This document shows, piece after piece, positions 8,063-63,152 of a stretch of 64,000 bases of DNA; the stretch's first letter is position 1, and every line of letters starts with the position of its first letter. This DNA comes from Candidatus Omnitrophota bacterium (GTDB lineage Bacteria; Omnitrophota; Gorgyraeia; Zapsychrales; Fredricksoniimonadaceae), in the NCBI GenBank assembly GCA_903944345.1, contig CAJARJ010000001.1:12339-76338 (forward strand). The letters run 5' to 3'. The position numbers and the translations under genes were made by a program. The notes beneath the pieces were generated by a model. The model had not been told where the DNA came from, did no database searches, and saw only the letters and a program-made list of their open reading frames with translations.

Positions 8063-8185
8063 GACCTCATCCCACCTTCTATTAACCCAAATCACTAATA
8101 ATTATTTGATAAACATATAAAATATAACAAACTATATCCTGTATTATGTACTTTGGCAAGGATCGAGGAAACCCCGAATCCGAAT

Positions 8186-31414: not shown

Positions 31415-31831
31415 TTATTCCTGCCAATTAACAACATCATCCTGCCCCTCGACCCCGTCCCGCCCAAGGGAGAACAGGTCAAAATCATGCGACCGGTGGC
31501 TGCCTGGCGATTTATACTGGTACAATCGACCCCAGGGATCAACCGGATTTTTGTCCAGATAAGGCCCTTTCCAGCGCAAAGCCGATGATGGCGCCTTGAG
31601 AAGCGCCGCCAGACCTTCTTCTGTCGTCGGAAAGGCTCCATTGTCCAACTCATACATCTTAAGAGCCGTGGCCAGATTCAGCTCCACGTCAGCCTGGGCC
31701 ACACTACGCCTGGCCTCCTCGGAACGCCCGGAAAGTTTTGGCACAATCATCGCCGCCAGAACACCGATAATGATCACCACCAACATAATCTCAACCAAAG
31801 TAAAACCTCTGCGAAAACGCCTGAAACTCAT
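31415..31831 (-). CDS. gspG: Type II secretion major pseudopilin GspG
   Basis: Class III prepilin signal RRGFTLVEIMLVVIIIGVLAAM; GspG core LDNGAFPTTEEGLAALL...WKGPYL...DPWG..Y.Y..PG...DFDL.SLG.DG; the track ORF start is extended spuriously, so ATG at 31831 with a GGAGG RBS is used. Confidence 0.85.
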   Translation of the reverse strand: MSFRRFRRGFTLVEIMLVVIIIGVLAAMIVPKLSGRSEEARRSVAQADVELNLATALKMYELDNGAFPTTEEGLAALLKAPSSALRWKGPYLDKNPVDPWGRLYQYKSPGSHRSHDFDLFSLGRDGVEGQDDVVNWQE

Positions 31832-31847
31832 AAGCCTTTGCCTCCGT

Positions 31848-32693
31848 TCAATATTCACGCCAGGAAAGAATTTTTTCCTGGCCAACAACCACTTCGTAAT
31901 CAACTCCTCTGCGGCCCAGAACATATGTCCTAACCTGCAGCCTGAGCGCTGAAGACTTGACATCCAGCGCCCCGGACAAGGACTGCAACAACGCCAGCTG
32001 GGACTGGCCCAGCATGATTTCATTTGAAAGAGTCGCAGCCAACGCGTCAGCGCTTTCAAAAAAACCGTCGTCGTCCGTCCCTTCTGTCTCGTCGGCTCCG
32101 GCACGAACCGCCAGCACCGCCTGAACCAGATTAATATCAAAACCCAACGCCCCCAGCACAACCGAAGAGGCGGTGTTAATGTTAATTTTGCTCTCACCGT
32201 AAACGGTCAAATGCTCCCGACACTGAGCCCATACCTCGGGAGTGACGCCCTCAACCAGTCGCAATTCTTCCAGAACGGCATAAGGGCGCGCTGAACGGAT
32301 AATATTTTCGGCGATGGCCTGGCTTAACCCGGGAATACGAACCAGGATCTCCTGTGTCGCGGTATTCACGTTAATCCTGGCAGTCTCATCTGCCAGGACG
32401 TATTCGGCCTTACCGGACCCCGCCGCAAAAGCCCTGGAACGACCAAGATCGGTCAAAGCATCGTACTCTTTAACCGGCTCTAGTCGCTCGTCAATGACCT
32501 CCAGCGCAGCCGAACGGGCCAGCGGCCAGCCAAGAACCAGTTCCTCATATTTCTTCAGAATGCGGATCCTGGTGGATATCCCGGAAGAAACACCCAAACC
32601 GAGAATGACAAAAAAAACCATCACCCAGAGCGCCGCGATCAGAATGCTGCCGTTATCCCGCGGGAATAAAAACAACTTTCTCGAATTCCTCAT
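31848..32693 (-). CDS. gspK: GspK-like minor pseudopilin with two helix-hairpin-helix motifs
   Basis: Hydrophobic N-terminus GSILIAALWVMVFFVILGL; HhH-like INVNTATQEILVRIPGLSQAIAENII and ININTASSVVLGALG; internal ATG chosen. Confidence 0.65.
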   Translation of the reverse strand: MRNSRKLFLFPRDNGSILIAALWVMVFFVILGLGVSSGISTRIRILKKYEELVLGWPLARSAALEVIDERLEPVKEYDALTDLGRSRAFAAGSGKAEYVLADETARINVNTATQEILVRIPGLSQAIAENIIRSARPYAVLEELRLVEGVTPEVWAQCREHLTVYGESKININTASSVVLGALGFDINLVQAVLAVRAGADETEGTDDDGFFESADALAATLSNEIMLGQSQLALLQSLSGALDVKSSALRLQVRTYVLGRRGVDYEVVVGQEKILSWREY

Positions 32694-33204
32694 CCTGATA
32701 TTTCCCCCGCAACGAAACTGCCTGGCATAACCCGAGTTCTTTGGTCCACTCTTCACTACGGGTCACCCCTTGCCCGCTGATGACCAGATATTCCAGCGAC
32801 AAGTCCGTCGCAGCCAGCATACGCTTTTCAACAGGAGTTTCCTGCCCGGCACGAATATCCGCAAGCCGCTCGACGCGCCGGACCAGACCCCCCTCGTTCA
32901 CCCTGACTTCATAGGCGACGCGAACCACCTGTCCGTCGTGAACCATCGCAAAAATAAAATGACTGCGATCACCTTCCATTCCGATCTCGGGTACGGATTG
33001 CGCCTGACGAATGTCCCGGGCCACAACTTCCAGATCAATACGGAACATATCCTGCACGCCGCTCGAACTGGTAATCCTGCTCCACAAACGCAAGCCCGAA
33101 ACCAGTACCCCGCCCAAACCTGCCGCCACGCAGCCCAGAATCACGCTGACCAGCATAATCTCGACGAGGGTAAATCCGTAGCGGCGCCGACTACTCTTTT
33201 TCAT
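32653..33204 (-). CDS. Minor pseudopilin (GspJ/PulJ-like) with an N-terminal prepilin methylation motif
   Basis: RYGFTLVEIMLVSVILGCVAAG class III signal. Confidence 0.65.
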   Translation of the reverse strand: MKKSSRRRYGFTLVEIMLVSVILGCVAAGLGGVLVSGLRLWSRITSSSGVQDMFRIDLEVVARDIRQAQSVPEIGMEGDRSHFIFAMVHDGQVVRVAYEVRVNEGGLVRRVERLADIRAGQETPVEKRMLAATDLSLEYLVISGQGVTRSEEWTKELGLCQAVSLRGKYQDEEFEKVVFIPAG

Positions 33205-33589
33205 GCACAAGAAAGCCCAGCACTTCATCCCTGGCTACCACCCCTTCCTTCCAGACTACTGACAGCAAAACCCGGCTGAGGCCAGTCTGCTGATCATCCC
33301 GACGCCAGGCAGAAACATCCTGACTGAAAACCGCCTTCCGCCCTCCGGCCATAAGCCGCGGTTCCGACGTAAAAAGCTCGTCGTCGCCCCCGGCCTCCTG
33401 CCAACGCGCAAGACCGGTATCCAGCCACACAAGAGCTGCAAAACGATTATTAAGATGATCCAGAGCGGACGCCGCCGAAAGAAATGAACGCAAAACACCG
33501 ACAATACCAACGGAAAGGATGCAGACGGCGACCATCAGCTCAACCAGGGAGAAACCGGAGCCGGCAGGCTCACTGCAACGCCAGCTCAA
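33191..33589 (-). CDS. Minor pseudopilin (GspI/H-like)
   Basis: GSGFSLVELMVAVCILSVGIVG class III signal, 132 aa. Confidence 0.7.
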   Translation of the reverse strand: MSWRCSEPAGSGFSLVELMVAVCILSVGIVGVLRSFLSAASALDHLNNRFAALVWLDTGLARWQEAGGDDELFTSEPRLMAGGRKAVFSQDVSAWRRDDQQTGLSRVLLSVVWKEGVVARDEVLGFLVHEKE

Positions 33590-34106
33590 TGGTCAACTCC
33601 CCTTTCAGCAGGGCAGCGGATTCGTCCTTGGCGCTCAAAGACAGGCGGATAATCCGAATGAGAAGACGGCTGTTTTCAACCAACCGGACAAAATCCATGA
33701 CTTTCTCCGGAGTGCCTTCCATGCGCAAATCAACCTTGAGAATTTTGCTGCGCAAAATGGCTTCCTGAGTCCCCTGTGGACTGAGATTTATAATGGAAAC
33801 CCCGGCTTCTTTGGCAATACGCTCGCTCTCGCGTAAAAGCGCCTCGGAAAGCACTCGCACATCGGACTCTTTGCCAGGCAAATACTCCTTGTAGCGGGAA
33901 TGCTCCTCCTGAATCGCCTGCGCACCCTGGCGTATGCCTAAAAGACGCACAAACTTTTCTTCGGAAGCAGACGTCTGCTGGCTGATCGCCCGGAATTTGG
34001 CACGAATATCCTTGACGATCCAGACCACCACAAACAACGTCAGCAGCAGACAAGCCGCACCGATGAGCATGACACTGTTCTTTTTATCAGACAGAAAATT
34101 GGCCAT
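33570..34106 (-). CDS. PilO/GspM-like bitopic inner-membrane assembly protein
   Basis: Single N-terminal TM, coiled-coil, periplasmic domain; located between the pilM-N fusion and the pseudopilins. Confidence 0.5.
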   Translation of the reverse strand: MANFLSDKKNSVMLIGAACLLLTLFVVVWIVKDIRAKFRAISQQTSASEEKFVRLLGIRQGAQAIQEEHSRYKEYLPGKESDVRVLSEALLRESERIAKEAGVSIINLSPQGTQEAILRSKILKVDLRMEGTPEKVMDFVRLVENSRLLIRIIRLSLSAKDESAALLKGELTIELALQ

Positions 34107-34109
34107 AAA

Positions 34110-35480
34110 TCACTCAACCGTAAAACTGACTTCGAATTCCGTCAGATCCCGATCCCTGACTTTTTTCTTACGTGTCGAACGTGTCTGGACATCGCGAAAC
34201 CGCTTGATGCCCCCCAGGCTATCAATAAACTGAAACGCTGTAGCCAGCCCGTCCGCCTGGCCGCGCAAAAAAACCTTGCCCTTTTCGTCAAGCGAAACAG
34301 CGGTAATCGCCACCGTATCCGGAATAATGGACTGAACCTCAGACACAATAACCCCGGGGGTCTGCCGGGCATTCAGATTCTTTTTAACAAAATCGGTCTT
34401 GCCCGCCTTGTCGACAACCTCAGAAAGTTCCCGCTCCAGCAGAGCAGTCTTGAACTGGACAGTTTTTAAATGACTTTCCCGAATATATACCTGTGACCAG
34501 TAAAAACCTCCGACCAGAACCAGCAGATAGCAAAACAGGCCGGAAAAGAAAACCAGATCCGCCGTATCCTTGCGCAGGGTCTTGCGAATCTGAATCTCCG
34601 GAAGCAAAAGCGTAGCCTCGGCCGAACCCTCACCGCCAAGGACAGCCATGCTGCTCACGGAAACATCGGATCCAACCCCCTTGGCAGACGACTCCACTGT
34701 AACCGGAACATCAAATTCGTCTTTAAGTTTCTGCTCCAGCAAGCCTGCCGCCTTGGCCCCACAAAGCACAATACCGGCAATCTTCTGGTTCATTTCCTCG
34801 TTATGAAACATGACCAAAGACTGCTTGACCTCGCCGATAAATTTAAGCGACGCCGACTCGAAATCGGAAATAAGGCTTCTGGCCCCGACATTGATGCTTC
34901 GGGAGAACAACAAATTATCTTTCTGCATGATTACACAGTCAGTAAAGCCTGCGTCGATGTCCAGAACCAGCATTAACGCCTCGCTGGCGGGTTGGGAGCG
35001 ATACGCGTTCCAAAGACCGTAACTGGACAAAGTCAGACGCTCAACCAGAAGCCCGGCTTTCTCGACCATAGCCACCTGTCGACGCAGAATGTCTGCCCGC
35101 ACAATAACCACCAGCACACGAGTATAACCGACCTCATCCTTGCCGATAATCCGGTGACCGCTGACCACGTCCTCTTTTTTATAAGGAACCATCCTGACAA
35201 TATTGAGATCCACCATCTGGGCAATTTCGCGCTCGTCTTCGGAAGGAAGGTGCAGATTACGAACAGTTGCGGCATTCCTGGAGATCGACAACGTCACCCG
35301 GCCCGAACGGGAGCGCCAGCGTTTGAGGCAGGAAGCCAGCGCCTGGGCCGAAAGGACATCGTTCTCCTGAACGTCTTCGGCAGCGAACTCTTCGGCACGA
35401 AAGCCTGCTCCGGCAGACTGTGCCTGGGCAACCTTGATATGCTCTCTGGAAATTTGAACAATGTAATTCTGTTTTGCCAT
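34110..35480 (-). CDS. PilM (actin-like ATPase fold)-PilN fusion protein
   Basis: About 330-aa PilM-like cytoplasmic domain, TM helix LVFFSGLFCYLLVLVGGFYW, about 110-aa PilN-like periplasmic domain. Confidence 0.7.
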   Translation of the reverse strand: MAKQNYIVQISREHIKVAQAQSAGAGFRAEEFAAEDVQENDVLSAQALASCLKRWRSRSGRVTLSISRNAATVRNLHLPSEDEREIAQMVDLNIVRMVPYKKEDVVSGHRIIGKDEVGYTRVLVVIVRADILRRQVAMVEKAGLLVERLTLSSYGLWNAYRSQPASEALMLVLDIDAGFTDCVIMQKDNLLFSRSINVGARSLISDFESASLKFIGEVKQSLVMFHNEEMNQKIAGIVLCGAKAAGLLEQKLKDEFDVPVTVESSAKGVGSDVSVSSMAVLGGEGSAEATLLLPEIQIRKTLRKDTADLVFFSGLFCYLLVLVGGFYWSQVYIRESHLKTVQFKTALLERELSEVVDKAGKTDFVKKNLNARQTPGVIVSEVQSIIPDTVAITAVSLDEKGKVFLRGQADGLATAFQFIDSLGGIKRFRDVQTRSTRKKKVRDRDLTEFEVSFTVE

Positions 35481-35484
35481 AAGA

Positions 35485-36705
35485 TCAGCTTACAAACTGG
35501 GTTATCTGGAACGTCGGCAGCAGGATCGAAAGAACAATTCCCCCAAGAACCACGCCGATAACCAGAATCAGTAACGGCTCAAGCAGGGCCGTCACAACAG
35601 CGATATCCGCTTCGATTTGCTGGGAATAGGAGGCCAGAATCTCTTCCAGAACTTCGACCAGCCGACCTGACTCCTCCCCGATTGCAATCATCTTAACAAA
35701 AAAATCCGGTAATTGTGCATAAAGGTTTAAACTTTTTGCGATACCCCCTCCATCCGCAACCGCACGGCAGGCTTTGGTCAAGCCCTCCCGAAGCCGGGGG
35801 TCTTCCATCGTCGGGACAGCCAGCTCGAACGCGGTCAAGGCCGGCACCCCGCTTTTGAGCAAAAGTACCAGTGCCCGCGTAAACTGCACCAGCTGCTGGC
35901 TTGTCATCAGTTGCCGCAAAACAGGAATGCGACGAACAACCTGCCCAAGGGCAAGGGACAGGAACGCTTTCCCCCGGGGATGGAAACAGGCCGCAACCAG
36001 TCCGACCACTCCCAGAAGAACCAGTGGCCAGGAACGATTTAGCAAAGTACTCGTCTGCAAAACAATCCGCGTCGTCAGCGGAAGCTCCCGGCCCAACCCT
36101 TCCAGCAAAGGACGCAGACGCGGTACTACAAAATTCATCAGGACAAACACGCTGAGAAAACCGACACCCCCCAACAACGACGGATACGCCAGAGCGACAC
36201 GAATGCGGCTGCGCATGGCGGCATCGCGGGACATAAAATCGTTAATCTGCTCGAGCGCGGCATCCAGCCGACCACTCGCCTCCCCCGCCCGGATAATATG
36301 CACAAACAAAGCGGAGAAATATTCCGGATAACGCGACAGCGCTTCGGAGAAAGACTTGCCCTCACGCGCCATCGCATGCAGCTGCTGGATGACATCCCGA
36401 AAAACAGGATTCTCGGTCTGCTCGTGAATAATGGCCAGGCCGGAAAGAATTTCCACCCGCGCGCGCGTCAGGGTAGTCATTTTCTTGACGAACAAAAGAA
36501 CATCTGTCTGGGTCACCCGTTTCGGACGAGCCTGACGTGGGCGCGAGGAAGGCATGGCTGCCACGCCGGATTCCGGCGCAATATGAACAGGAAAAAGCCC
36601 GAGGACAGACAGTTTGGAAACAGCATCTGCCTGGCTCTCGGCATCGATGCTGCCCTCGGTTACTTCGGTAAGATTCTTTTTTGCCTTGTAAACAAACCTG
36701 GGCAT
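35485..36705 (-). CDS. gspF: GspF/PilC family inner-membrane platform protein
   Basis: Two T2SF repeats, 406 aa, 3 TM topology. Confidence 0.85.
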   Translation of the reverse strand: MPRFVYKAKKNLTEVTEGSIDAESQADAVSKLSVLGLFPVHIAPESGVAAMPSSRPRQARPKRVTQTDVLLFVKKMTTLTRARVEILSGLAIIHEQTENPVFRDVIQQLHAMAREGKSFSEALSRYPEYFSALFVHIIRAGEASGRLDAALEQINDFMSRDAAMRSRIRVALAYPSLLGGVGFLSVFVLMNFVVPRLRPLLEGLGRELPLTTRIVLQTSTLLNRSWPLVLLGVVGLVAACFHPRGKAFLSLALGQVVRRIPVLRQLMTSQQLVQFTRALVLLLKSGVPALTAFELAVPTMEDPRLREGLTKACRAVADGGGIAKSLNLYAQLPDFFVKMIAIGEESGRLVEVLEEILASYSQQIEADIAVVTALLEPLLILVIGVVLGGIVLSILLPTFQITQFVS

Positions 36706-36710
36706 AAATT

Positions 36711-40659
<3,949 letters not shown>

Positions 40660-40662
40660 AGA

Positions 40663-42162: not shown

Positions 42163-42169
42163 AGAAGTC

Positions 42170-42886: not shown

Positions 42887-42893
42887 AGGCCTC

Positions 42894-43103: not shown

Positions 43104-43115
43104 ACTGCTCCCGGA

Positions 43116-56100: not shown

Positions 56101-58907
56101 TCGCCGTCATTGCTGGTATAGGCGTAATTACGGGAAGACGGCGCCAAAGCAGTCCAGGCATTGTTGGCAATCGAATAGGACGCAAACCGGTTTTGATAGC
56201 TAAGCCAGTAAATATTGTCGCCGCTGCCCGGATAAAGCAAGGCCTGAGCGTTATGACCGCCGGCCGGAGCCGAAGCTAAAGTGGTCCAGGCATTCGCGCC
56301 GATATTGTAACGGTAAAAATTACTGGCCGCATTACCCACTTTCCAATAAAGCATATTGTTGGCTTGATCCACAGCAAAAGTGTTACCCCGTCCTTGATTA
56401 TTGATTATTGCATAAGGCAAATCTACCAACCCAGTCCATGTGTTGGAAGAAATCGTGTATTTCATGAACTTGCGACCACTCTCGGTCGTAGGATGCAGGC
56501 CATACCCGGCAGCGGCAAACAGCTGATCTCCGGCTCCTTCAAATTGAGATTCTAGTACAATTGGCAAAGGCGAATCCGCCATGGCCGCCCAGACATTGTT
56601 GACAAAATCATAGCGCCACAAGTTTGTTTCGCCCCGGCCTTCCAGAACATAGACATAATTTCCGGTGCCCGGATAAGTGGCCTTGCTGCCCCAGCCCAGC
56701 ATAAAAGGCGCCACAACAAACCCGGTCCATTTCTTTTGGGAAAGAGAATATTTCCAGATTGCAGTGGAGTCATTGCCGTAAAACATGTACACCGTGTCAG
56801 CATCCACAAGAACCGTGCTGCCATACGCCGGAGACTGGATATCGCGGTAACGCAAATTCCAGGAGTTGGTGGAAATAGTGTAAACACCCATGTCCCGTTC
56901 GCCGGCACGCGCGATATAAACCTTGTCTCCCTGAGCGACCAACGCCGCATAAGCATCGCCGCACCATAACGGGGTGGAGGGTAAAACTTCCCAGGTATTG
57001 CTTGCGATATCGTAGCGGGCAAAAGAATAAGCCGTGCCAAAAAAAGCGTAAATGTAATTGCCGCTGCCGGGCCAAACCAATTCACTTTTATCATAAAACA
57101 TAAACGGCGCATCAGCCATGCGCGTCCAAGTATTATTGGTTGTCTGATAGCGCCAGAATTTGCGGTTGTAAGCTCCGTTGGAATAACCGGTGGCGGCAAA
57201 AACATAATTTCCGGCTCCCGGCGCATACGGATAAACCATGGCTCCGCCATAATGCACATACTCCGGGGAAGGCAAATCGGCCACACCAGTATCGTCCCAG
57301 ACATTGGATGAAGGGTCATAGCGCCAGAAAGTGGCCGTCTGGTTACCACGAAAACCGTAAATGTAGGTGCCGTCACTGGCCAGGGAGCCGCCATAATAAA
57401 TAGGAGAGGGCACTGAGGCCAGCGTGATCCAGGTGTTATCCGCCGGATTATACCGGGCAAAACCGGAATTAAGATTACCCTGCTGGGCATAGACACGTCC
57501 GCCGTGATGCACCAACGCATGCCCTTGATACTGGGCAGCCCAGGGCATGGCCGTCAACGCTACCCAGTTATTGTTAACCAGAGAATAACGCGCAAACTCG
57601 GCCGAATTGTGCCCGCTGGACGCATAAATATAATTGGCGCCGTCCGAAATCATGCGCGCGTACGTCTGTAACCAGGTGTTGGCCCGCGGCCCCATGAGCT
57701 CGTCCCATTTGGCAGCCACCGGGTCGAAATGCAGGGGCCGGACATAATTGCCCATTGACAAGAAATTGAGGCGACCGCCAACGCCAGGATCGTAAAAAAT
57801 GCCGCGATAGGGGTAGATCGGAATTGAGGCATTGGCCGTTCCCGAATAAAGATCATCCCACTGGGCGGTAACATAATTGTAGCGGGCAAACTGTCCCAGG
57901 CGATCATCCTCCCGCCAGGCATAAAGATAGTTGCCTCCCGGATGCTGCAAATTACCCACTCCAACCGGAGAGGAAGTAAGCCCTACCCACTGATTACCCG
58001 AGATGGAATAACGCGACAAGGTTGTGCCGGTACTGGAAAACATGGCCAGCAAATCCGAACCCGAGCCGGTATAAACCAGACCCGCTCCCCGAGTCACAGC
58101 CACCGGAGTGTTAGCCATATTGGCCCACGTATTGGAAGCAATCGTATAAGCAAAAGCGCGCGTGGTAGCTGCCCCGGCCAGACAGTAAACTTTTGTTCCG
58201 TCTGAAGCCATGGCCGCACCATAACCGATAAAAGTGGAGGCATCCGCCAGACGAGTCCAGGTATCGGTGGAGATGGAATATTTATAAAACTGTTTGGTGT
58301 TGGCCCCGCGGGTGACATAAAGAAAATCCCCGCCGGTAGTCGGATAGGCAAAAGCTGCCCCGGTTCCGATGGGCACAGGCATGTCGGCCAGAAACGTCCA
58401 GGTTTCTGCAGCTATGTCGTAACGCCCCAGCTTGTTGTTGCGCCAAATGGCGTAAATGTAATTGCCGGCCCGAACCCAGGGTGACCACCAGGACAAGGAC
58501 GGCATTTCCGGTAAAGAGCTCCAGTCGCCCGGACGCAAACCAAAGGGGTCTTCGGAAGTAGTCTGCAGGGTCAGATAGGCATCGGCACCGGTACCATCAA
58601 CCTCAACCAGATACGGAATGCCGGAAGCAAAATCAGCGTCCGTAGTGTCGGTTAAAGCCAGCAGCTGGGGAACTCCGGTAAGAACACCGTTAAAGGAATT
58701 GTCAATATAACTATCTTTGGAATAAAAAAGCGACCAGCCTGTTTTGTTGGCCGGATGCAGAGCCAGACCCGCAAGAGACGCTCCGCCCGTCCAGTTGGTC
58801 TGGTGAAAAACATCGCTTTCCTGGGCAGGCAGAGGGCGGTCATTGCAAAAAAGCATAGCCCCCAGAAGAAGCGGAAGCAGCAGTCGGCGAAAATATATCA
58901 CAAACAA
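44151..58907 (-). CDS. Giant (4918 aa) secreted multi-domain surface/adhesin-like protein: signal peptide, about 23 Kelch-like propeller blades, DUF2341-like and LamG/ConA-like domains, about 13 Ig-like repeats, 600-aa C-terminal region
   Basis: Single uninterrupted 14,757-nt ORF; N-terminal signal MFVIYFRRLLLPLLLGAMLF; repeated Y.YSI..N.W..LA..P blades; DUF2341-like modules ending IYLYYG; LamG-like modules (LVAYYRFDEGAGSTLNDYSGQGNHG...); about 95-aa repeats (L/I)TSPNGGE.W..G....ITW...G...N.LKLEYStDgG.TW..IA....NTG.Y.W.VPD. Confidence 0.9.
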   Translation of the reverse strand: MFVIYFRRLLLPLLLGAMLFCNDRPLPAQESDVFHQTNWTGGASLAGLALHPANKTGWSLFYSKDSYIDNSFNGVLTGVPQLLALTDTTDADFASGIPYLVEVDGTGADAYLTLQTTSEDPFGLRPGDWSSLPEMPSLSWWSPWVRAGNYIYAIWRNNKLGRYDIAAETWTFLADMPVPIGTGAAFAYPTTGGDFLYVTRGANTKQFYKYSISTDTWTRLADASTFIGYGAAMASDGTKVYCLAGAATTRAFAYTIASNTWANMANTPVAVTRGAGLVYTGSGSDLLAMFSSTGTTLSRYSISGNQWVGLTSSPVGVGNLQHPGGNYLYAWREDDRLGQFARYNYVTAQWDDLYSGTANASIPIYPYRGIFYDPGVGGRLNFLSMGNYVRPLHFDPVAAKWDELMGPRANTWLQTYARMISDGANYIYASSGHNSAEFARYSLVNNNWVALTAMPWAAQYQGHALVHHGGRVYAQQGNLNSGFARYNPADNTWITLASVPSPIYYGGSLASDGTYIYGFRGNQTATFWRYDPSSNVWDDTGVADLPSPEYVHYGGAMVYPYAPGAGNYVFAATGYSNGAYNRKFWRYQTTNNTWTRMADAPFMFYDKSELVWPGSGNYIYAFFGTAYSFARYDIASNTWEVLPSTPLWCGDAYAALVAQGDKVYIARAGERDMGVYTISTNSWNLRYRDIQSPAYGSTVLVDADTVYMFYGNDSTAIWKYSLSQKKWTGFVVAPFMLGWGSKATYPGTGNYVYVLEGRGETNLWRYDFVNNVWAAMADSPLPIVLESQFEGAGDQLFAAAGYGLHPTTESGRKFMKYTISSNTWTGLVDLPYAIINNQGRGNTFAVDQANNMLYWKVGNAASNFYRYNIGANAWTTLASAPAGGHNAQALLYPGSGDNIYWLSYQNRFASYSIANNAWTALAPSSRNYAYTSNDGDMFYPGSGDFIYYFDSAFGLLARYSMSANDWDQPVGHPSTWSIYNYGVFGSGPDEDLLYFGGHQGFWKYSLSTRNFVTLNSPYANLAWAWDEWGAALTYSGTGDYLYTTRGRNRTDFARYSVTLNQWTALTPPGGNFGSGHDIAATATKVYCLRGDSRTDFWIYDIATNQWASGAPVPNTVNFGGSLAYPGFGNYLYATRGNGGAEFYRYSINNNVWTALAELPISLMSSDTNTPSLIYPGRGDYLYFIPTGNYGYTWGTNMFLRYSISQNTWQELNPSPSVFYGGANLIYPGRGDFLYATRGGNGHFYDVFKYRLYQQGQYTSAVKNVGRNSAYNTVNWSDNASGVIELKVRTALDSAMTGVSKWENINPVTKNSDLSGTFPVVRPGDQYLQYQVSLLTEDPQNLPQLRDISFNFFRYPFDQELISTPYNSGQALNRLTGISWTRTIPAGSDIRFQLRTAPDNNGQPGAWGVWLGPGGAQTLLNDMETDSEYSYDPQIEVRDGVARLAKQLEDYAYTQRIVVENNSGADLVNAGLAIELNDSNPHFWEHVKSDGADIRFVDSAGNLLGYNITSNGGYFDYAARRAEAMVKVFSLPAGQKTSIYLKYGKPDAESASNPDEDFIPAMANLVAYYRFDEGAGSTLNDYSGQGNHGVIVNNPVWVNGKFGKALSFNGSNQYVNLGGAASLKMSLPVTFSYWINLPVNIDGNWRIPVASTSWGGNPGYCTMINSRNQFILSVNGAETTAPRTSWGISTGEWHMITHTTNSTTSKLYIDGELKQTFSGSWNLSPGSNNTWLGYSPSGSYNYLWGAMDEVAIYNKDLSDAEVSQLFRTSFSSAGSDVVRYYFTAVEDNETSPALSGWSHRSEITVDNSLGGELTDYQVKVTLTAAVDSFWERCRNDGADVRFVDSDNTTILSYNQVSFDYANRTAVYWVKLPAVPANSVETIYLYYGRSDASAVSSVSATMTKTFPETGRNASGLSLPVPEAMAVAAAAPAPADALTVESSFEHTLNYWPGGWLYRKEININNAGQEAVEYLVLTMEIDYEPGMKPDFSDIRFWEKDMRHKLRYRIRSLGASKATIYLEVPDLPADSIKQLYLYYGNAAANSESDDSLSDYLYLDDFDSYMTTNYNYSSRVYFENGEVRLLGNNNWSDAYINTKQTFQRYNEGTTFEASFRQASTNEATMIGWKIPGTDQSYGQMPYAIYFENNASIYIYENGTSRGRVSTNYTFGTSYDIKITLQPTQGAKYYYRTTGSDPWTLLYTSTFAPNTTLVPHIIHNGRGGYNAFTDNWKVYRGDTEGGALGLTLPVTFGAQETPLVVRSQWLPGFAHRRVLTFDNSGLADAENKLYVFDIAYADGKMRSDYGDIRFVDTDGTALPHRILSSSPAQARFMVQVPYVPGRSTKTVIMYYGNPGTQVEQDTSLPAMPVDGLTNWWKMDENAGYNTEDFAGSIDFNDMGSPLWVPGFSGSALDFTGTSNLTRTDTISLPVGSEMSVGAWIYPRTLPQTTWNGVISWGNRSSRDSFVLAVQNNGRLAFTNFSNDFVSASGLAVAGNTWNHVAAVLDGTSIKLYINGQSVNGMSITLNNLPAVQSKNLAIGSTDLAARYFDGIIDEVTIYNRALSDDEVFGLSNAWVIVPVWGDEENEDVPADQTILVKSGSFGLKLTTLGLTGFVNGTSVSTGDYPTGTLTHAALTYDGARLKLFVDGQEKASSALTGTVSANANPLQIGGGLVGLIDEARVWGEQQAVGDLFERRYRALSGTEPGLLGLWRFNDATGSTAVDGSLYGHNVTLSGGAGWLARPFDYIDGAPLAVWHFDEGVGTSTADATVNNNRISLVNTSWSSTDLTGFPGAKALTFNGTTAYGYAADSATLDVTGQVSLEAWVQPLTIEGNHLILAKGSDLHSRLNYGLYQYSDTLAFSFRNNTQKLHATGAVLTQGLVQHVVATFDEAVDTVKIYVNGNLVYTSTQETSTMLTNNDNLQLGREASAAMPFVGNLDGVRIYDRVLLAREVLAHYQSHKQVENEPLLFDVLTPETVGAIAVYASSNPVIQPVNGTFYYEKSLVQMQDILLTPYGTTVRYQVSPNGYTWHWWDGSQWDDVTGGYSQTNTSAEINAHLTEFQDIYPQGNFYFRAYLHSEPSSFRTPSIESVGVTFMGAQTYYLDPSGGENINPLHTDADSDQWFQYRALFFSEGQQAAILDDISLDYITAFLNLTAPNGGETIVVGQTYPVTWNSQALQVEGGSGLVKLQYSADNANTWALIAEHVSNTGSYNWLVPDAPSQQGYVRISSEDLPTVADVSAASFRVLSLAVTAPNGGEVLEAGRQFNITWNVTGAIPNDVVKIEYSTNGGTSWTVISAITPNDGVYEWVVPAVFADSVLVRISSPSNDRIQDLSNTAFSIVPTPAFSLSSPVLGDRWSVGASKPISWRTNSLIFSSQIKLEYSNDAFQSDVHEIAQVSVGTPQGAGNNDDILGTYNWQVPDIISANMMVRLTEVGIPAGRGTQQEVSFTSPVFSIVDPVLTLTSPVADMVWVVGDTNNITWTVDGTVSNDLKLEYSLNGTDFVLIAEHLTNSGTYAWVVPPGAVGSAVRVRLTDAQRAQVTITSVAFRVLAHTTIELIQPVGGERITMGTDYTVRWRTYGHKLDSSGADYNKISIFYSTDDGATWTLSGFNQANTGSFTWRVPDEPTETARIKVVDQNDALAAGISPAPFAIELPTVTLTSPVGGESWYATGNYSVTWTSVGSLSANLKLEYSTDGGSTWTTFRTGQSNTGNYLWGPVADANSQTMRVRITDMSYPSVTSSSPANFTIKPPAITLVLPNGGEMWAVGTTQEVRWYSEGSDFGAVRDNITLQYSSNGGSTWNNIATGVANNDLYYWMIPDSLSTNSLVKIFDATRPATTDVSDAVFEISLPKVIITSPNGGELWPVGMQYPITWQSVGSVSNDLKLEYSTDNFATVHTIAGSAPNTGEYLWTVPDDMSDTVRLRLTDNLRTQISDTSDLTFAITLPRIIVTWPNGGEIVSVGDVENIVWQPLGAISNNLRIEYSDDNFVSDVVLIAQGVPNTGTYAWTVPDDRSATLRVRITDADRSAVWDKSDASFTILPAPQITMLHPEGGEVWRVGSVHDITWEDNGGRVSNNLRLSYSVDNGASWIQIATGVHNTGSHSWTIPDNVFSTALVRIMDESRPSTTATSPAFNLALPGITITAPNGSEVWSVGDRGPVRWESEGTVSENLLLSYSPDNGITWYLVRGGIPNSGSYSWTVPDYITTQCLVRLVDGNRPAVLDVSDDVFVINPLPTMTFLTPGSGDEYVLADTIPVTWEWTGLSIANLTLDYSSDNFITRRIIETNLANTGSYDWVVPADAITGRTIKFRLTDGVRSQITATSQGNVRIRGGFRILSPNGGEKLVARSTHAITWQTMGTISNVRLEYTTDGLNWSFIGTAVNTGTYNWTTPDIKSEHVRVRVSDVDDNTTMDTSDSDLALVYATAVFKVMDYDTYQHLTDFSVNEPASGWTDTALASPLTRTEEYPYGSYTTFFSKQEYIDNSVTWTPPKQGVEPYVVTVYLENAASAQVTWESILTYSFSPATDSLTAVGSLQRKGKLVGTNETERSDMGTATFKIYEPDGETVRNSMASPAPGATGMYNFTLAETAFEAGKVYPATLTIEYRGREYTSAANIDVGSEIMQYEFFTETTEQLMSAVSNIQSTVAATSEDMKEVVSKDIASIKTELQNETRKILFSTQTELPERISLLQETVQRELSSEILNTESAVKAGETLTIRYRAGSGLVPVIDVYNAQNLQVVTSARMTEMTGTGIYQYPVLFYSSWGRGDFTIVCSEPTLGTMDAMTITVTMSDLDQVYSQVSALMGTTSGISGINTTVNKLNEQFASIETVINDMGSGAFKGAGGLAADAAQSAVAPLFGQLTAMAKQIQSLTGEGGVSLGKMLDVSQERQGDMTYLKNKTQELKAAMEVSKKILENMNNKPVTQVWYEYKE
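45700..49580 (-). repeat. Array of about 13 Ig-like / Kre9-KNH-like beta-sandwich repeats (about 95 aa) in the giant protein
   Basis: PNGGE(x)W/ITW/LEYS.D.G.TW/NTG.Y.W.VPD pattern repeated; amino-acid repeats diverged, not identical at DNA level; boundaries approximate. Confidence 0.65.
50300..54500 (-). repeat. Alternating DUF2341-like (4 copies) and LamG/ConA-like (4 copies) modules in the giant protein
   Basis: Four units ending (I/V)YLYYG/MYYGNPG with D(I/V)RF(V/W)D cores; four units with the W..DEG.G....D.SG motif and a V.IYN.ALSD.EV tail; boundaries approximate. Confidence 0.55.
55150..58600 (-). repeat. Coding repeat array: about 23 Kelch/galactose-oxidase-like beta-propeller blades (about 50 aa each) in the giant protein
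   Basis: Recurring ...F.RY.I..NTW..LA.MP... units; boundaries approximate. Confidence 0.6.
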
Positions 58908-58931
58908 CTCCAGTTCTCCCCCACCAAAGTA

Positions 58932-59237
58932 TTATTGTCCACGCTGGGCCTGTGCGGCAAGCAACTGCTGCTGTAACTGTTCTACCCGGCGAGCCATCGC
59001 CTGGTAGGACACGCGGTCGGCACTGTATTTCTGTTCCAGATCGGCGGCTATCTTTTTATGTTCCTCCGCAAGCTTCTGTTTGAATTCCGCGCGGCAAGAC
59101 GAAGCCTCCCTCTGAAAACGGGCGGTTTCGGTGCCGGCACGAAAAACGAAAAACCCAAGAACAAGGATAACACCCAGACACAGCAATTGCCAGACGCCCG
59201 GGCGGGAACAGCATCCGTTATTTTTTGTCGTCGTCAT
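58932..59237 (-). CDS. Small membrane-anchored coiled-coil protein (101 aa)
   Basis: Single TM WQLLCLGVILVLGFFVF followed by a Gln/Ala/Glu-rich helix; sits between the TPR genes and the giant gene. Confidence 0.45.
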   Translation of the reverse strand: MTTTKNNGCCSRPGVWQLLCLGVILVLGFFVFRAGTETARFQREASSCRAEFKQKLAEEHKKIAADLEQKYSADRVSYQAMARRVEQLQQQLLAAQAQRGQ

Positions 59238-60036
59238 TAGCTGACCTCCGCTTCTGATCCTTGCGTCCGCCTGAACCCAGATCCAGATCGTACATACGAT
59301 TAATGGTTTCCTGCACCCAGACCGCGTCTTCAGCGTCGGGCCTCAGCTCCAGATAACGGCGAAAATGCAGGGCCGCGCGATTATAATTGGCCTCGACGTT
59401 TTTGTACATAAGCGCCAGATTGTAGTGCGCATCGGCATTGGTGCCGTCACTCTTGATCGCTTCCTCGTACTCGCGCATGGAATCGCGCATAAAGCCTGCC
59501 TTGGCATAGGCAACACCGAGGTCGTAGTGATAAAGACTGCGTTCTTTCTGAATGGTTTCTTCGTGTTTACGGACACTGTTTAGCAAACGCTGACGCTGCA
59601 GGCGCAAAGCCTTTTGCTCTTTCTCGCGATGGGTGAGAATGCGTTTGAGCTGGGCGTCCATATCGGTCTGAATTTTTGTAATCTCGTCCTTGTTGGTGCC
59701 GATCAGCCCGTCAACCCGCTTGAGCCGGGAAGAAAGATCTTCCCGTTCTTTTTCAAGATCATTGTTGCGGGTCATATATTTGAGTGTTTCGGACTGTATT
59801 CTTTCTTTTTCCTGAAGAATAAGCTCCTTTTCCTTCTTGAGCTGCAGGGCCGCTGTTTCGGCCTTGCCCAGGAGAGACTTCATGTTATCCAGGCGGCGTT
59901 CAACAGACTGGCGGGAGGTAAAAAGAAAATAACAGCCCAACGCCAAGCCAAGGCACAACACACCGGATATCAGTGCCAGCCAAAACCGCGAATCGAAGAA
60001 ATTTTTTGCAGATGTCTGGTTCATACCTATTCCCAT
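59218..60036 (-). CDS. Membrane-anchored coiled-coil plus TPR protein (272 aa), tandem paralog of the next gene
   Basis: N-terminal TM, about 150-aa coiled coil, two TPR units (YHYDLGVAYAKAG...HYNLALMYKNV), KR/D-rich tail. Confidence 0.6.
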   Translation of the reverse strand: MGIGMNQTSAKNFFDSRFWLALISGVLCLGLALGCYFLFTSRQSVERRLDNMKSLLGKAETAALQLKKEKELILQEKERIQSETLKYMTRNNDLEKEREDLSSRLKRVDGLIGTNKDEITKIQTDMDAQLKRILTHREKEQKALRLQRQRLLNSVRKHEETIQKERSLYHYDLGVAYAKAGFMRDSMREYEEAIKSDGTNADAHYNLALMYKNVEANYNRAALHFRRYLELRPDAEDAVWVQETINRMYDLDLGSGGRKDQKRRSANDDDKK

Positions 60037-60749
60037 TTGTTGCGGGCCTTGATAGTGTTGATCAGATATTCGACTTCCTTGGTGTTTGACGCGTACGGCA
60101 AGAGCGAAAGATATTCGTTAAGATGCCGAACCGACCCCTCGTCGTTGCCGAGAGCGGCAAACAACATCCCCAGCGCGTAGTGCGACTTGTGATCCTTGGG
60201 ATCCAGAACCAGGGCCTTGTCGTAAGCCAGGATCGCTTCACGCAACATGTGGGCATCGGCATAGGAAGCCCCGACATCCCGGTATATCGAAGATTTTTCG
60301 CGGTCAAACCCGTCGCGCACCAGGTTAAGACGCCGCCGCAATTTGAGATTGTCGGCTTCCAGTGCCTGGCGTTCCTGCTCCAGTTTGGTCAGCTTGCCCT
60401 GTAAAGCCTTGATTTCGGCCTGGGCCAGGCCTTCCTTGCGGGACGCAAGAGCCAACTCGTTCTTGAAACTGTCGTGCTCGGCCTTGAGTGACTGAGCTTC
60501 CAGCGCCAGTCCCTCGGCCCTGGTCTCGGCTTTGCGCACAGCAGCAGTTTTGGCTTTCAGGGTGTCACGCTCCCTGCCGCAGGCCGCCAGCGATTCCTGC
60601 AAATCCAGAACTTTTTCTTCGAGCATGCCCACGACAGGCTGCTGCTCATTTCCGCCGGCACCAGCGGGCAGCTGATCCTGCGCGGAGGCGGTAACCGCCT
60701 GGCACAAACAAAAGGCGCAAATCCATGAGATTATTATCCTGCGACGCAT
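60027..60749 (-). CDS. Signal-peptide coiled-coil plus TPR protein (240 aa), candidate secretin-associated pilotin-like factor
   Basis: Signal MRRRIIISWICAFCLCQAVTASA, coiled coil, TPR units (YRDVGASYADAH...HYALGMLFAALG); immediately downstream of the secretin gene. Confidence 0.55.
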   Translation of the reverse strand: MRRRIIISWICAFCLCQAVTASAQDQLPAGAGGNEQQPVVGMLEEKVLDLQESLAACGRERDTLKAKTAAVRKAETRAEGLALEAQSLKAEHDSFKNELALASRKEGLAQAEIKALQGKLTKLEQERQALEADNLKLRRRLNLVRDGFDREKSSIYRDVGASYADAHMLREAILAYDKALVLDPKDHKSHYALGMLFAALGNDEGSVRHLNEYLSLLPYASNTKEVEYLINTIKARNKWE

Positions 60750-60762
60750 ATCTTCCCCTCGT

Positions 60763-62511
60763 TTAGAATGACCTGATGCCCTTCATACGGATATCCATCT
60801 CTTCTGACTCAACTTCCTGGGCTTCGGGCGGCACACGCGTTGTGTGTCCGTCAAAGCCTTCGGGACCCCGTGCGGGAGCTGTCTGCCTGACCTGGTCAAG
60901 CCCATCCTCTATAAGACGCTCTCTGGTTTGCACAGACGCAATGTCCGGAGGAACAATATCGTCGGTTTCCAGCCCCTTGATCGGGACATCTCCGGGAATG
61001 ATTCTGGGTGTAATAAAAATAATCAGCTCGGTCTTTTTACGCTGCTTGCCTTTGGCTCCAAAAGCACTGCCCAGTACCGGCAGCCGGGAAAGAACCGGAA
61101 TACCTGTTGTATCTTCACGCTTGTCTTCCTTCATAAGGCCGGCAATCATGATCATGGTGCCATCCTTGACCTTGACCACGGTGGACGCCTCGGAAGTTTC
61201 CACAATCGGAATGCGGCTGCCCAAAGCAGTCGTAATAATCTCGCGCACCGAGCTGACTTCAGGCTTGATCTTGAGGACAACATAACGATCCTTGCTGATC
61301 GAAGGCTCGACCTTCAGCTTGACACCAACATCGGTAAACTGGATGTTTTCAGACGTGACTGTGGTGGAATCGCCCTGGCTGAGCGACTGGGTGACATACG
61401 CTTCGCGTGAACCAACCATGATACTGGCTTCCTGATTGTTGGTCACAGAAATCCGCGGTTGGGAAAGAACTTTGGTATCCCCGAGTGTTTCCAGAAACTG
61501 GATGGCGGCAGTGTATTTGTCGGACTCAAGAGAACCCACGGTGACCTTAAGCTGATCGGTCCCCAGACCGGGCGAAGGCGTAAACGAAGAAGCCAGCGGA
61601 AAGGTTCCCTCGACCTTGGCATTATCCAGAGAAGCCCCCATAATTTTCGACCAGTTGATGCCCCGCAGATATTCCTTCTTGAGTGTGACCTGGACTATTT
61701 CGCCTTCTATAAAAACCTGGCGAGTTGGTTCGTCAAAAGCGCGAACCATGGAGCGCACCTTGTCCATGCGCTCGGGCAGATCGGAAACAACCAGTTTATG
61801 CGAGCGCTCGTCAACATAGATTTCGCCTACTCCGGGGGTAAGCACGCCCGACAAAAGGGCTTTAACATCGGCCGGGACGGAATACTGCAACTCAAAGATT
61901 TCGACCTGAAGCGGGCGATCCAGACGCGCAATGGTTTCGGCAATGAGAGGCATCTTTTCGGGAATATCAATTACAAAAAGCGAGCCGGTGTTCTCGTCGA
62001 CCACAATCTTGCCGATGTCAGACTTGAGCTGACCCAAAGCCTCGAAAACAACCTGTGGCTTGGTGTAGGCCAGCTTGAAGAAACGCACCATACGCTTTTC
62101 GTTAAACTTCTTGCCGTAGGCACGCTCGTATTCGGAGGTAGTCATGACATTGATAATGCGGCCATTTTTTTCGTAAGCCAAATCCTGGCTGAACATAACA
62201 ACATCCAGCGCATCCTCGTAACTGAGATTGTTCAGATAAATGTTGATGCGGCCGGAAACGCTACGGGTGGGAACGATAGTAACTCCCATTTTAACCGAAA
62301 GGACGCGTAGAAATTCGTTTATGTCGATTCCCTTGAGATCCAGGGATATTTTCTGGTCGACAGAATTCTGATCGAGCAATTTCTCGACCGAAACCGCCGA
62401 AGGTCCGCCTTGTTCCGATGCTCCGGAAGCCCCCTGGGCCCGGATTGCCGGAGAAGGAAACGCAAGCGATACCGCCAGAACTGCTGGGATAACAAATGAC
62501 CGTCTGTTCAT
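60763..62511 (-). CDS. Secretin (GspD/PilQ family outer-membrane channel)
   Basis: Signal peptide, N-domains, C-terminal secretin domain (...VLSQPRISVTNNQEASIMVG...TELIIFITPRII). Confidence 0.9.
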   Translation of the reverse strand: MNRRSFVIPAVLAVSLAFPSPAIRAQGASGASEQGGPSAVSVEKLLDQNSVDQKISLDLKGIDINEFLRVLSVKMGVTIVPTRSVSGRINIYLNNLSYEDALDVVMFSQDLAYEKNGRIINVMTTSEYERAYGKKFNEKRMVRFFKLAYTKPQVVFEALGQLKSDIGKIVVDENTGSLFVIDIPEKMPLIAETIARLDRPLQVEIFELQYSVPADVKALLSGVLTPGVGEIYVDERSHKLVVSDLPERMDKVRSMVRAFDEPTRQVFIEGEIVQVTLKKEYLRGINWSKIMGASLDNAKVEGTFPLASSFTPSPGLGTDQLKVTVGSLESDKYTAAIQFLETLGDTKVLSQPRISVTNNQEASIMVGSREAYVTQSLSQGDSTTVTSENIQFTDVGVKLKVEPSISKDRYVVLKIKPEVSSVREIITTALGSRIPIVETSEASTVVKVKDGTMIMIAGLMKEDKREDTTGIPVLSRLPVLGSAFGAKGKQRKKTELIIFITPRIIPGDVPIKGLETDDIVPPDIASVQTRERLIEDGLDQVRQTAPARGPEGFDGHTTRVPPEAQEVESEEMDIRMKGIRSF

Positions 62512-62540
62512 AACGTTCAGAGCACAACCTCCGTCCTAGG

Positions 62541-63152
62541 TTACCTCAGATCCCACACTTTGCCGTTTTTTTCGATGACGACACTGTCTCTTTTTATTTC
62601 GTTGACCTTGAAATTGCCGATTGCATCGTTTCTGGCAACCAGATAAGTTTTTTGTTCCTGGACATTCTCAACCATAGCCTGAGGGGTATCAGACCAGAGA
62701 ATACCCACCAGTCTGAATTCCGCGATTTCCTCACGGTCGCCTATCACATCGCCACCCTCAGTCCGGGCTACCGGAACCAGAGAAAAAATATTTCTTTTCT
62801 TGAGCAGAAACTGAACTCTGGTGAAATCAGCACCAGCGGTCTTTTCGTATTTGATTCCGCTGCCAACCGGCGCCGTCTCGATCCGGCGTAAATCCTGTCC
62901 CGCTTTTTCGCTGGCATAAAGAAAATATCCGGCGAAAACAGCTGTAAGAACAATACAAAGAACGACGAGCAAGGGAATAAGCCCCTTGGTTTTCCAAGGC
63001 GCATTGGCCATCATAAGCGCCTTGCTGGAACGGAAGGAAATACTGCGAACCTGATCTGTGCCGACGGCAGCTGTCCGGCCTTCGAGACCCGGGGGCGGCT
63101 TGAGCGCTGACGCCTGCTTTTCTTCCTGCATTTTTGTTGTTCCCCGAAGCAA
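62541..63152 (-). CDS. Bitopic membrane protein, PilP/GspC-like candidate secretin-interacting component
   Basis: Single TM LIPLLVVLCIVLTAVFAGYFLY then a beta-rich periplasmic domain; immediately upstream of the secretin gene. Confidence 0.45.
   Translation of the reverse strand: MLRGTTKMQEEKQASALKPPPGLEGRTAAVGTDQVRSISFRSSKALMMANAPWKTKGLIPLLVVLCIVLTAVFAGYFLYASEKAGQDLRRIETAPVGSGIKYEKTAGADFTRVQFLLKKRNIFSLVPVARTEGGDVIGDREEIAEFRLVGILWSDTPQAMVENVQEQKTYLVARNDAIGNFKVNEIKRDSVVIEKNGKVWDLR

Follow-up and report, generated by a model that had tools for sequence, protein, structure and literature searches.

We analyzed a 64-kb stretch of a Candidatus Omnitrophota genome (64,000 nt of contig CAJARJ010000001.1, referred to here in full as the window), in which genes for a filament-forming secretion apparatus resembling the type II secretion system (T2SS), a gene for a giant exported protein, and genes for an F-type ATPase lie together. 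They form an unbroken run of 21 consecutive minus-strand genes extending from position 63152 down to position 31415. Families were assigned to the window genes by Pfam and NCBIfam scans, the latter with NCBIfam equivalog cutoffs. The largest intergenic gap in the array is 29 nt; the spacings in gene order are 29, 13, -10, -20, 24, -17, -4, 12, 7, 7, 3, 8, -4, 5, 4, 3, -20, -38, -41, and 16 nt. Inspection of the letters showed two ATGA start/stop overlaps, one joining the open reading frame (ORF) of a 265-aa protein to the gene for ATPase subunit epsilon (43370 to 43373) and the other joining the gene for subunit beta to that for GspE (38387 to 38390). An original prediction, made from the sequence alone, had described a co-directional array from 63152 to 31415 with tiny gaps or overlaps and had pointed to these two start-stop overlaps as junctions. 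The ORF calls bear out the array, the overlaps are real, and every family call that had been made along the array was upheld by the profile searches. The predicted gene set was also right, and some of the ORF boundaries had to be corrected: subunit c is the 69-aa ORF at 42894 to 43103, GspG has 138 aa, and GspK has 281 aa. A 129-aa ORF at 42868 to 43257 that had been taken for atpE is out of frame with the real subunit c and was rejected.

Because ~40 of the 45 window genes are on the minus strand, the shared strand along the array is unremarkable in itself; the features that exceed chance are the tight packing and the kept synteny described below. The spacing of the genes is compatible with co-transcription of the array. 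Scans for promoter and terminator consensus sequences gave the same counts as shuffled sequence, with none located within the junctions, and are silent on read-through. An Rfam scan of the window returned no matches and hence no riboswitch for cyclic di-GMP (c-di-GMP).

Secretion and type IV filament genes

All of the array genes, and therefore all coordinates given for them, are on the minus strand. The array opens with the gene for a GspC/PilP-like inner membrane protein (62541 to 63152) that has one transmembrane (TM) helix and a C-terminal HR-like domain and is matched weakly by T2SSC of Pfam (E value, 1e-3) and GspC of NCBIfam (E value, 6e-4). The next gene encodes a secretin of the GspD/PilQ/MshL type (60763 to 62511) with a Secretin domain (157 bits) and two Secretin_N domains; it scores 234 bits on the PilQ model and 223 bits on the GspD model, each score being under the model's own cutoff. 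The secretin has 705 homologs at an E value of ≤1e-40, and the best of these are named Omnitrophica or Omnitrophota. There follow a periplasmic coiled-coil and TPR protein with a signal peptide (60027 to 60749; TPR_2, TPR_1, and TPR_11), a membrane-anchored coiled-coil and TPR protein with one N-terminal TM helix (59218 to 60036; TPR_11 and TPR_17), and a 101-aa protein with one TM helix and a coiled coil (58932 to 59237), which matched no family.

The rest of the apparatus is encoded beyond the giant gene and the ATPase genes. It begins with an assembly ATPase of the GspE/PilB/MshE type (36711 to 38390; T2SSE, 424 bits), which has an N-terminal MshEN c-di-GMP-binding domain (56 bits) and scores 51 bits on the c-di-GMP motif model NF053729 (cutoff, 38). 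A GspF platform protein (35485 to 36705) with two T2SSF domains (178 bits) scores 311 bits on the GspF model versus 240 bits on the PilC model. Next are a PilM-PilN fusion of GspL-like architecture (34110 to 35480; PilM_2 and PilN matches; pilM, 81 bits), referred to below as PilMN, and a bitopic GspM/PilO-like protein (33570 to 34106) with a weak GspM match (E value, 1.6e-5), whose orthologs in relatives match PilO or T2SSM_b. The array closes with four pseudopilins: a minor one of 132 aa with an N_methyl motif and a position that is conserved in relatives (33191 to 33589), a GspJ-like minor one of 191 aa with an N_methyl motif and a weak T2SSJ match (32653 to 33228), a GspK-like minor one of 281 aa with T2SSK and HHH_3 matches (31848 to 32693; T2SS_GspK, 49.5 bits, below the cutoff), and the GspG major pseudopilin of 138 aa (31415 to 31831; typeII_sec_gspG, 146.5 bits versus a cutoff of 88.85; T2SSG, 108 bits).

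Within the window, then, the T2SS core is represented by secretin, T2SSE, and T2SSF matches over the Pfam thresholds and by a GspG match over its equivalog cutoff; the matches to GspC, GspM, GspJ, and GspK are weak and below cutoff, and the role of GspL is taken by the PilMN fusion. No gene for a prepilin peptidase, GspH, or GspN was found in the cluster, and a second, PilT-like ATPase was not found in the window or in any fetched locus. The major pilin matches GspG, not PilA. Judged by these profile matches, the filament part of the array is a T2SS- or MSH-like type IV filament machine and not a classical type IVa pilus (T4aP). Like the T2SS and the mannose-sensitive hemagglutinin (MSHA) pilus, it has GspD, GspE, GspF, GspG, a GspL-like PilMN, and, by weak matches, GspC-, GspK-, and GspM-like proteins, with an MshE-type c-di-GMP domain on GspE; its TPR proteins resemble MshN, and an AAA_22 ATPase present in relatives resembles MshM/ExeA. 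Unlike those systems, it has ~21 kb between gspD and gspE, occupied by the TPR genes, the giant gene, the anchor gene, and six atp genes, and most of its components score below equivalog cutoffs.

The MshEN motif of GspE, together with a REC-GGDEF diguanylate cyclase gene found within the cluster in relatives, suggests that the machine is controlled by c-di-GMP. Approximately 14 kb downstream of the module, at 16303 to 17033 on the minus strand, a stand-alone response-regulator receiver gene (125 aa) and a PilZ gene (118 aa) overlap by 4 nt; given the c-di-GMP domain of GspE and the REC-GGDEF genes that lie within the module in relatives, this pair is a possible c-di-GMP input of this organism.

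The F-type ATPase, the giant protein, and its anchor

The six atp genes of the array encode F1 subunits epsilon, alpha, gamma, and beta, an Fo subunit c, and a fused peripheral-stalk subunit. Epsilon (43116 to 43373) has 85 aa and consists of the beta-sandwich domain only (ATP-synt_DE_N, 42.8 bits); members of its family have 75 to 107 aa and lack the C-terminal helices, and on its family model the window protein reaches 35 bits against a cutoff of 67. In canonical enzymes, the C-terminal helices of epsilon inhibit hydrolysis. Subunit c (42894 to 43103; 69 aa) was read from the sequence, with a gene call that carries PF00137, and has two TM helices, a GRNP loop, and a Glu in helix 2; neither the Glu nor the RNP loop varies in any of the 35 family members. 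The fused b/delta subunit (42170 to 42886; 238 aa) has an N-terminal TM helix, a b-type helix, and a delta C-terminal domain, with ATP-synt_B matching over residues 6 to 132 and OSCP over residues 168 to 234 (profile positions 103 to 170 only), and the fusion is kept in 40 sequences. Alpha (40663 to 42162) scores 536 and 561 bits on the atpA equivalogs, over their cutoffs, and finds its closest PDB matches among canonical bacterial alpha subunits; its P-loop and the Arg finger in SVSRIG are kept across the family. The catalytic subunit beta (38387 to 39787) scores 565 bits on the atpD equivalog (cutoff, 463) and contains the Walker A motif GGAGLGKT, GVGERVRE with the catalytic Glu of GxGERxRE, and VLFFMDN; Walker A, the catalytic Glu, and Walker B are kept in alpha/beta across the family. 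Gamma, the rotor shaft (39796 to 40659), is divergent: it scores 74 bits on PF00231 (cutoff, 39.9) and only 55 bits on TIGR01146 (cutoff, 194), matches gamma subunits in PDB at an E value of ~1e-6 at best, and forms a distinct family.

Subunit a (ATP-synt_A, PF00119) had no match anywhere in the 64-kb window and was not found in ~75 loci searched together with as much as 10 kb of flanking sequence. Across ~130 loci, no a-like polytopic ORF with at least three hydrophobic segments was found in the module, apart from GspF. By these features, i.e., intact catalysis motifs, a retained Glu in c, a fused b/delta subunit, a short epsilon, a divergent gamma, and no local subunit a, the array ATPase is a specialized F-type enzyme.

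Upstream of the atp genes lie the giant gene (44151 to 58907) and the gene for the 265-aa protein, which we call H265 (43370 to 44167). The giant protein, 4,918 aa long, is a Sec-exported, beta-rich surface protein in which Pfam finds a Kelch propeller, four DUF2341 domains, four LamG_3 domains, and Kre9_KNH Ig-like repeats; it has an N-terminal signal peptide, no further TM helix, and a helical C terminus. H265, which has no family match, has a signal peptide, a beta-sandwich, a three-helix bundle, and a C-terminal TM helix, and an AlphaFold2 model with a predicted local distance difference test (pLDDT) score of 83 depicts it as a type I membrane protein. An exhaustive profile search for its family returned 953 cluster representatives, and in many of these the domain forms the C terminus of a very long protein. 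One such protein, P0179 (4,564 aa), aligns with residues 10 to 4917 of the giant and, from the very next residue on, with residues 36 to 230 of H265, i.e., the mature part without the signal peptide; the same in-frame fusion is present in P0171, P0173, and P0178. This in-frame joining in relatives is a Rosetta-stone fusion: it identifies the giant and H265 as the two parts of a single type I membrane protein, in which H265 anchors the giant to the inner membrane. Type IV pilus-like loci of archaea and Patescibacteria repeatedly contain large DUF2341 proteins, which have been proposed to be tip adhesins there. The original prediction had offered three roles for the giant, as cargo, a fiber tip, or a surface structure of the system; the cargo role is weakened by the fusion to the TM-anchored H265, and a tethered fiber, adhesin, or surface structure is more likely, on this evidence, than a released substrate.

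H265 was also considered as a cryptic subunit a, and this was rejected: it has one TM helix, has no conserved intramembrane charged residue, and is mostly periplasmic. In many members of its family with 420 to 690 aa (e.g., P0175 to P0177 and P0234), the N-terminal beta-sandwich/helical part is repeated in tandem, in two to four copies. The GC skew of the window is strongly negative (-0.10 to -0.20) over most of its length and close to zero (-0.05 to +0.02) over the secretin half and the giant gene (44000 to 62000 versus 1 to 44000), although all of the genes there share one strand; the Gly/Thr/Ser-rich composition of the giant may be the cause.

Conservation of gene order across Omnitrophota

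ORFs were called in fetched loci and labeled by iterated profile searches seeded with the window proteins. Proteins identical to those of the window occur on metagenome contigs. A profile of gamma homologs found 46 loci in a species-level genome collection, among them the complete genome of Candidatus Velamenicoccus archaeovorus LiM (L054); most are from Omnitrophota metagenome-assembled genomes, and the others are labeled uncultured Planctomycetales/Planctomycetia, uncultured bacterium, or Parcubacteria. The order that is kept in Omnitrophota genomes and metagenomes, over ~130 loci, is the giant, a protein of ~260 aa, epsilon-c-b/delta-alpha-gamma-beta, GspE-F-L-M, and the pseudopilins, and this order holds at 31 to 46% gamma identity (lowest, 31 to 34%).

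Adjacency was counted in gamma-anchored loci, 52 of which are not copies of the window, with denominators that vary by pair. Within the ATPase, epsilon was directly adjacent to c in 33/34 loci, c to b/delta in 36/36, b/delta to alpha in 39/40, alpha to gamma in 44/46, and gamma to beta in 47/47. Beta directly adjoined GspE in 37 of 43 loci, and one ORF lay between them in 5 more. Downstream, GspE was adjacent to GspF in 36/37 loci, GspF to PilMN in 33/35, and PilMN to PilO in 33/33; upstream, the giant was adjacent to the 265-aa protein in 23/24. In a reciprocal scan of JGI metagenomes anchored on H265, the ATPase was downstream in all 41 loci that had at least 3.5 kb of downstream sequence, and a giant homolog was upstream in all 46 loci that had at least 1.5 kb of upstream sequence. 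The proposal in the original prediction that the giant and atp genes form a module with the gsp/pil genes is thus supported by beta-GspE adjacency in 37/43 loci, an ATPase downstream in 41/41, and a giant upstream in 46/46. The intervening genes are therefore not a lineage-specific insert into an otherwise contiguous gsp/pil cluster; the relatives keep them.

The upstream half of the array was followed in three distant relatives (L059 to L061), which were found via secretin orthologs of 55 to 64% identity. In all three, a GspC/PilP-like ortholog lies in the same position ahead of the secretin, the TPR genes, including that for the membrane-anchored TPR protein, come after it, and a homolog of the 101-aa protein (~92 to 106 aa) follows the TPR genes. 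The complete upstream half in L059 and L060 consists of genes for an AAA_22 ATPase, GspC, the secretin, the TPR proteins, and the ~100-aa protein, followed by a Kelch/DUF2341/LamG protein of 4.5 to 4.9 thousand aa. The ~100-aa gene adjoins the giant gene in L059, and a transposase gene intervenes in L060, so that the secretin/TPR half precedes the giant in 2 of the 3 relatives examined. Most relatives differ from the window in having a gene for a REC-GGDEF diguanylate cyclase and/or a Peptidase_MA_2 protein between the anchor and epsilon, neither of which is present in the window; REC-GGDEF is inside the module in 34 relatives' loci.

A few loci depart from the common order. In L072 (JGI Ga0247841_10000281), the secretin, TPR, and ~100-aa genes lie between the Peptidase_MA_2 gene and epsilon, i.e., downstream of the giant. 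In L139 (JGI Ga0074199_1000090), the module appears to pass from gamma directly to PilMN, and none of beta, GspE, GspF, and b/delta was called; a deletion or an assembly artifact could account for this. The Parcubacteria-labeled contig L048 (LCKE01000030.1) carries an alpha-gamma-beta-GspE-F-L-M-pseudopilin block, indicating either misbinning or the presence of the module outside Omnitrophota. L022 (CP070797.1), which had appeared to lack alpha, c, and epsilon, was discarded as an exception: a gap filled by a run of N interrupts alpha there.

Function of the ATPase and relation to known systems

Co-location of an F-type ATPase with filament genes in this phylum has been published. Seymour et al. 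(2023; PMC10066038) report a nonrespiratory, "symbiotic" F-type ATPase beside T4aP genes in many Omnitrophota, in every class, with counts of 56/111 Velamenicoccia species and co-location within 10 kb on 57/66 contigs. In their analysis, alpha grouped with the Mycoplasma type 2/3 ATPases, apart from a respiratory Omnitrophota clade, and a role in attachment or motility on hosts was proposed. The statement in the original prediction that the arrangement is not known from described loci therefore does not stand as regards the ATPase and pilus genes. The published locus resembles that of the window in phylum and in the juxtaposition of alpha/beta with GspE/PilB, platform, and pilin genes within 10 kb, and the V. 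archaeovorus LiM locus cited there (L054) belongs to the gamma family of the window. The text available to us contains no subunit inventory and no description of the ~260-aa anchor, the giant DUF2341 protein, or the upstream secretin half. The ATPase is grouped there with Mycoplasma type 2/3, and the pilus is classed as a T4aP, whereas the profile scores obtained here favor canonical F1 ancestry and T2SS-like pseudopilins. In the papers available to us, we found no description of an ATPase of this kind that retains c and b/delta and lacks subunit a, of a giant-anchor pair that is always its neighbor, of the fusion of the two, or of the upstream secretin half. A T2SS-like locus beside giant genes (West-Roberts 2023) was considered and set aside as different, being a Tad/RcpC-type system with proteins of >30,000 aa.

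Taking the conserved gene order and the subunit features together, the explanation that we favor, and that we hold to be somewhat more probable than the rest combined, is that the array is an Omnitrophota-wide module for one envelope machine built from a filament apparatus, a tethered giant, and a dedicated rotary ATPase working by hydrolysis. The array ATPase is probably a motor for this machine and not the cell's ATP synthase. The first part would be a T2SS-like type IV filament apparatus (GspC, secretin, TPR proteins, GspE/F, PilMN, GspM, I/J/K-type minor pseudopilins, and GspG). The second would be the giant DUF2341/LamG/Kelch protein, held at the inner membrane by H265 and deployed through the secretin as a tethered fiber or adhesin; the pseudopilus, driven by c-di-GMP-activated GspE, would push the giant fiber through the secretin. 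The third would be the rotary ATPase, with a competent alpha3beta3, a divergent gamma, an epsilon without the inhibitory domain, a c-ring, and a b/delta stalk and without subunit a. ATP hydrolysis would turn gamma, epsilon, and the c-ring against the b/delta stalk, and no ATP would be made. The work, which could consist of rotation, extension, or retraction while the cell attaches to host or prey, would be passed on to either the tethered giant or the secretion platform.

Energy conversion is the textbook role of rotary ATPases; to our knowledge, only the Mycoplasma F1-like enzymes are known as F-type motors for surface machinery. The module seems to be a second, independent case of a rotary ATPase turned surface-machine motor, one in which the c-ring and stalk have been kept and the proton channel has been dropped. 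It spans a phylum of ultra-small, probably predatory or parasitic bacteria and is therefore likely to be central to host contact; its ATPase-platform core is carried by V. archaeovorus LiM, an enrichment culture. On this explanation, Omnitrophota alpha/beta genes should not be counted as evidence for chemiosmotic ATP synthesis in metabolic reconstructions.

Several observations weigh against a dedicated motor. Physical contact between the ATPase and the apparatus is suggested by gene order only. L061 carries the secretin half without a giant gene, and the Velamenicoccus-type loci (L054 to L057) have GGDEF, ATPase, and platform genes with no giant or H265 gene directly upstream, so the three parts are not always adjacent. 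Alpha and beta pass the trusted cutoffs of the housekeeping atpA/atpD models, and the invariant Glu of c is expected for ion translocation, which needs a stator channel; chiefly because this Glu is invariant, a subunit a (or V-type subunit I) could be encoded elsewhere in the genome. The last two points are also what would be seen if the atp genes encoded an ordinary proton-coupled ATP synthase with its subunit a encoded elsewhere, located in a secretion operon through co-regulation or operon drift, an explanation that we consider improbable. Split atp operons exist in other bacteria, and the best PDB matches are to canonical F1; a and c usually stay together in split operons, however, and here c occurs without a. 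A 2026 preprint records alpha/beta in 125/176 complete Omnitrophota genomes and canonical gamma in 30/176 and calls the complex incomplete. The missing gamma may be explained instead by the divergent gamma described above. Our own reading of those gamma counts suggests that most module-bearing genomes lack a canonical F operon, an indirect argument against a subunit a encoded elsewhere, and that the module is often the only F-type system; in many complete genomes, its alpha/beta may accordingly be the only F-type genes, which would fit an ordinary synthase. One published KEGG Orthology (KO) table (source data of Seymour 2023, genome 221) lists K02111 and K02112 and not K02108; this is weak evidence for the absence of subunit a, as the divergent c and gamma of that genome likewise escape KofamScan. 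The same KO list includes V-type I and K (K02123 and K02124) without V-type A/B and is a lead on a V-type stator serving an ATPase that lacks subunit a. Set against an ordinary synthase is the location of the genes between the giant-anchor pair and gspE, which is kept over 31 to 46% gamma identity, and Ace Lake Omnitrophota have been described with V-type ATP synthases. The original prediction had called these genes the cell's F-type ATPase; this part of it is not supported, given the absence of subunit a from every locus, the gamma score far under its family cutoff, the lack of the C-terminal regulatory domain in epsilon, and the placement of such enzymes by Seymour et al. in a nonrespiratory clade, apart from the clade of respiratory Omnitrophota ATPases.

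The explanation that follows Seymour et al. is that the system is a type-4a pilus with which the cell twitches or glides on hosts and that the ATPase is a gliding motor of the Mycoplasma type 2/3 family; it has in its favor the alpha phylogeny and co-location statistics of PMC10066038 and the presence here of a PilM/PilN/PilO-type alignment complex. Mycoplasma F1-like ATPases power surface machinery, and the type 2 enzyme drives gliding. The profile scores point elsewhere, and we regard this explanation, too, as improbable. Array alpha/beta score 536 to 565 bits on the canonical atpA/atpD models and less on the Mycoplasma models, where they reach 428 and 442 bits on MMOB1660/1670 (cutoffs, 600 and 850) and 347 and 396 bits on MSC_0618/0619 (cutoffs, 520 and 570); membership in the Mycoplasma type 2/3 family is not supported by these scores, and the functional analogy stands. 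The two have in common an alpha3beta3-gamma-type rotary ATPase moved from bioenergetics to a surface machine without subunit a. The Mycoplasma type 2 complex as isolated had no c or b/delta homolog and has a beta subunit with an N-terminal extension, whereas c and b/delta are kept here; alpha/beta here are near canonical, and the ATPase is partnered with a type IV filament machine, in a bacterium that has an outer membrane secretin. The Mycoplasma type 2 (gliding motor) and type 3 (MIB-MIP) clusters are not known to include c, b, or delta genes or to occur outside Mollicutes. A T4aP is also difficult to reconcile with a major pilin that is GspG above the cutoff, with GspK-, GspM-, and GspC-like genes, and with the lack of a PilT retraction ATPase in any locus. 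A further explanation, that the giant is a conventional soluble substrate released by the T2SS and that the ATPase genes are unrelated passengers, would suit a protein that carries a Sec signal peptide, lacks a TM helix, and is encoded inside a T2SS-like cluster; it is very unlikely given the in-frame fusion with the TM-anchored H265 in several relatives and the constant linkage of H265, the giant, and the ATPase in the H265-anchored search.

A more specific version of the favored explanation, that of a dedicated motor in an envelope machine, is that F1 with its c-ring and b/delta and without a acts as a membrane rotor, passing torque into the envelope through the H265 TM helix and c-ring or through the GspF/GspL/GspM platform, so that the fiber or pseudopilus would be spun, extended, or reeled in. 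We consider this a tentative idea, more likely wrong than right, and place the particular coupling in which the H265 TM helix associates with the c-ring at about the same low level. Type I membrane proteins do occupy the c-ring of the V-ATPase. If true, a membrane rotor would be a third use of the F-type ATPase and a living parallel to the proposed F-ATPase origin of the ATPase complex of the type III secretion system (T3SS). With the flagellar/T3SS export ATPase complex FliH-FliI-FliJ, the array system would share the use by a secretion apparatus of an F1-related ATPase that has a shaft resembling gamma and a stalk protein resembling b/delta. In place of a homohexamer, however, the array encodes genuine F-type subunits (alpha, beta, gamma, epsilon, c, and b/delta); it has no T3SS gate proteins, and its ATPase accompanies a type IV filament machine. 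The array b/delta matches OSCP and ATP-synt_B, not FliH; FliH is itself said to have been considered related to a fusion of b and delta by Pallen et al. in 2006. The N-ATPase (AtpDCQRBEFAG) is likewise a second, specialized F-type operon with a long b and no separate delta, and array b/delta gives a weak full-length match to the N-ATPase model alt_F1F0_F0_B. The N-ATPase, however, has a, AtpQ/R, and an Na+-type c, whereas a and AtpQ/R are absent here and the alt_F1F0 scores are 506 to 524 bits against a cutoff of 750.

Other genes of the window, all on the minus strand, include several large ORFs with no or marginal family matches: 4898 to 8095 (1,065 aa), 8186 to 10573 (795 aa), and 20655 to 23990 (1,111 aa). 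The 795-aa ORF matches DUF7790, and the 1,111-aa ORF has a sub-threshold PRTase-CE match. A 335-aa Rho homolog is encoded at 25966 to 26973, with a stop codon that overlaps the next start; it matches only positions 131 to 412 of the Rho models, apparently without the N-terminal RNA-binding domain, scores 371 bits on NF006886, and stays below the cutoff of the short-form Rho2 model.

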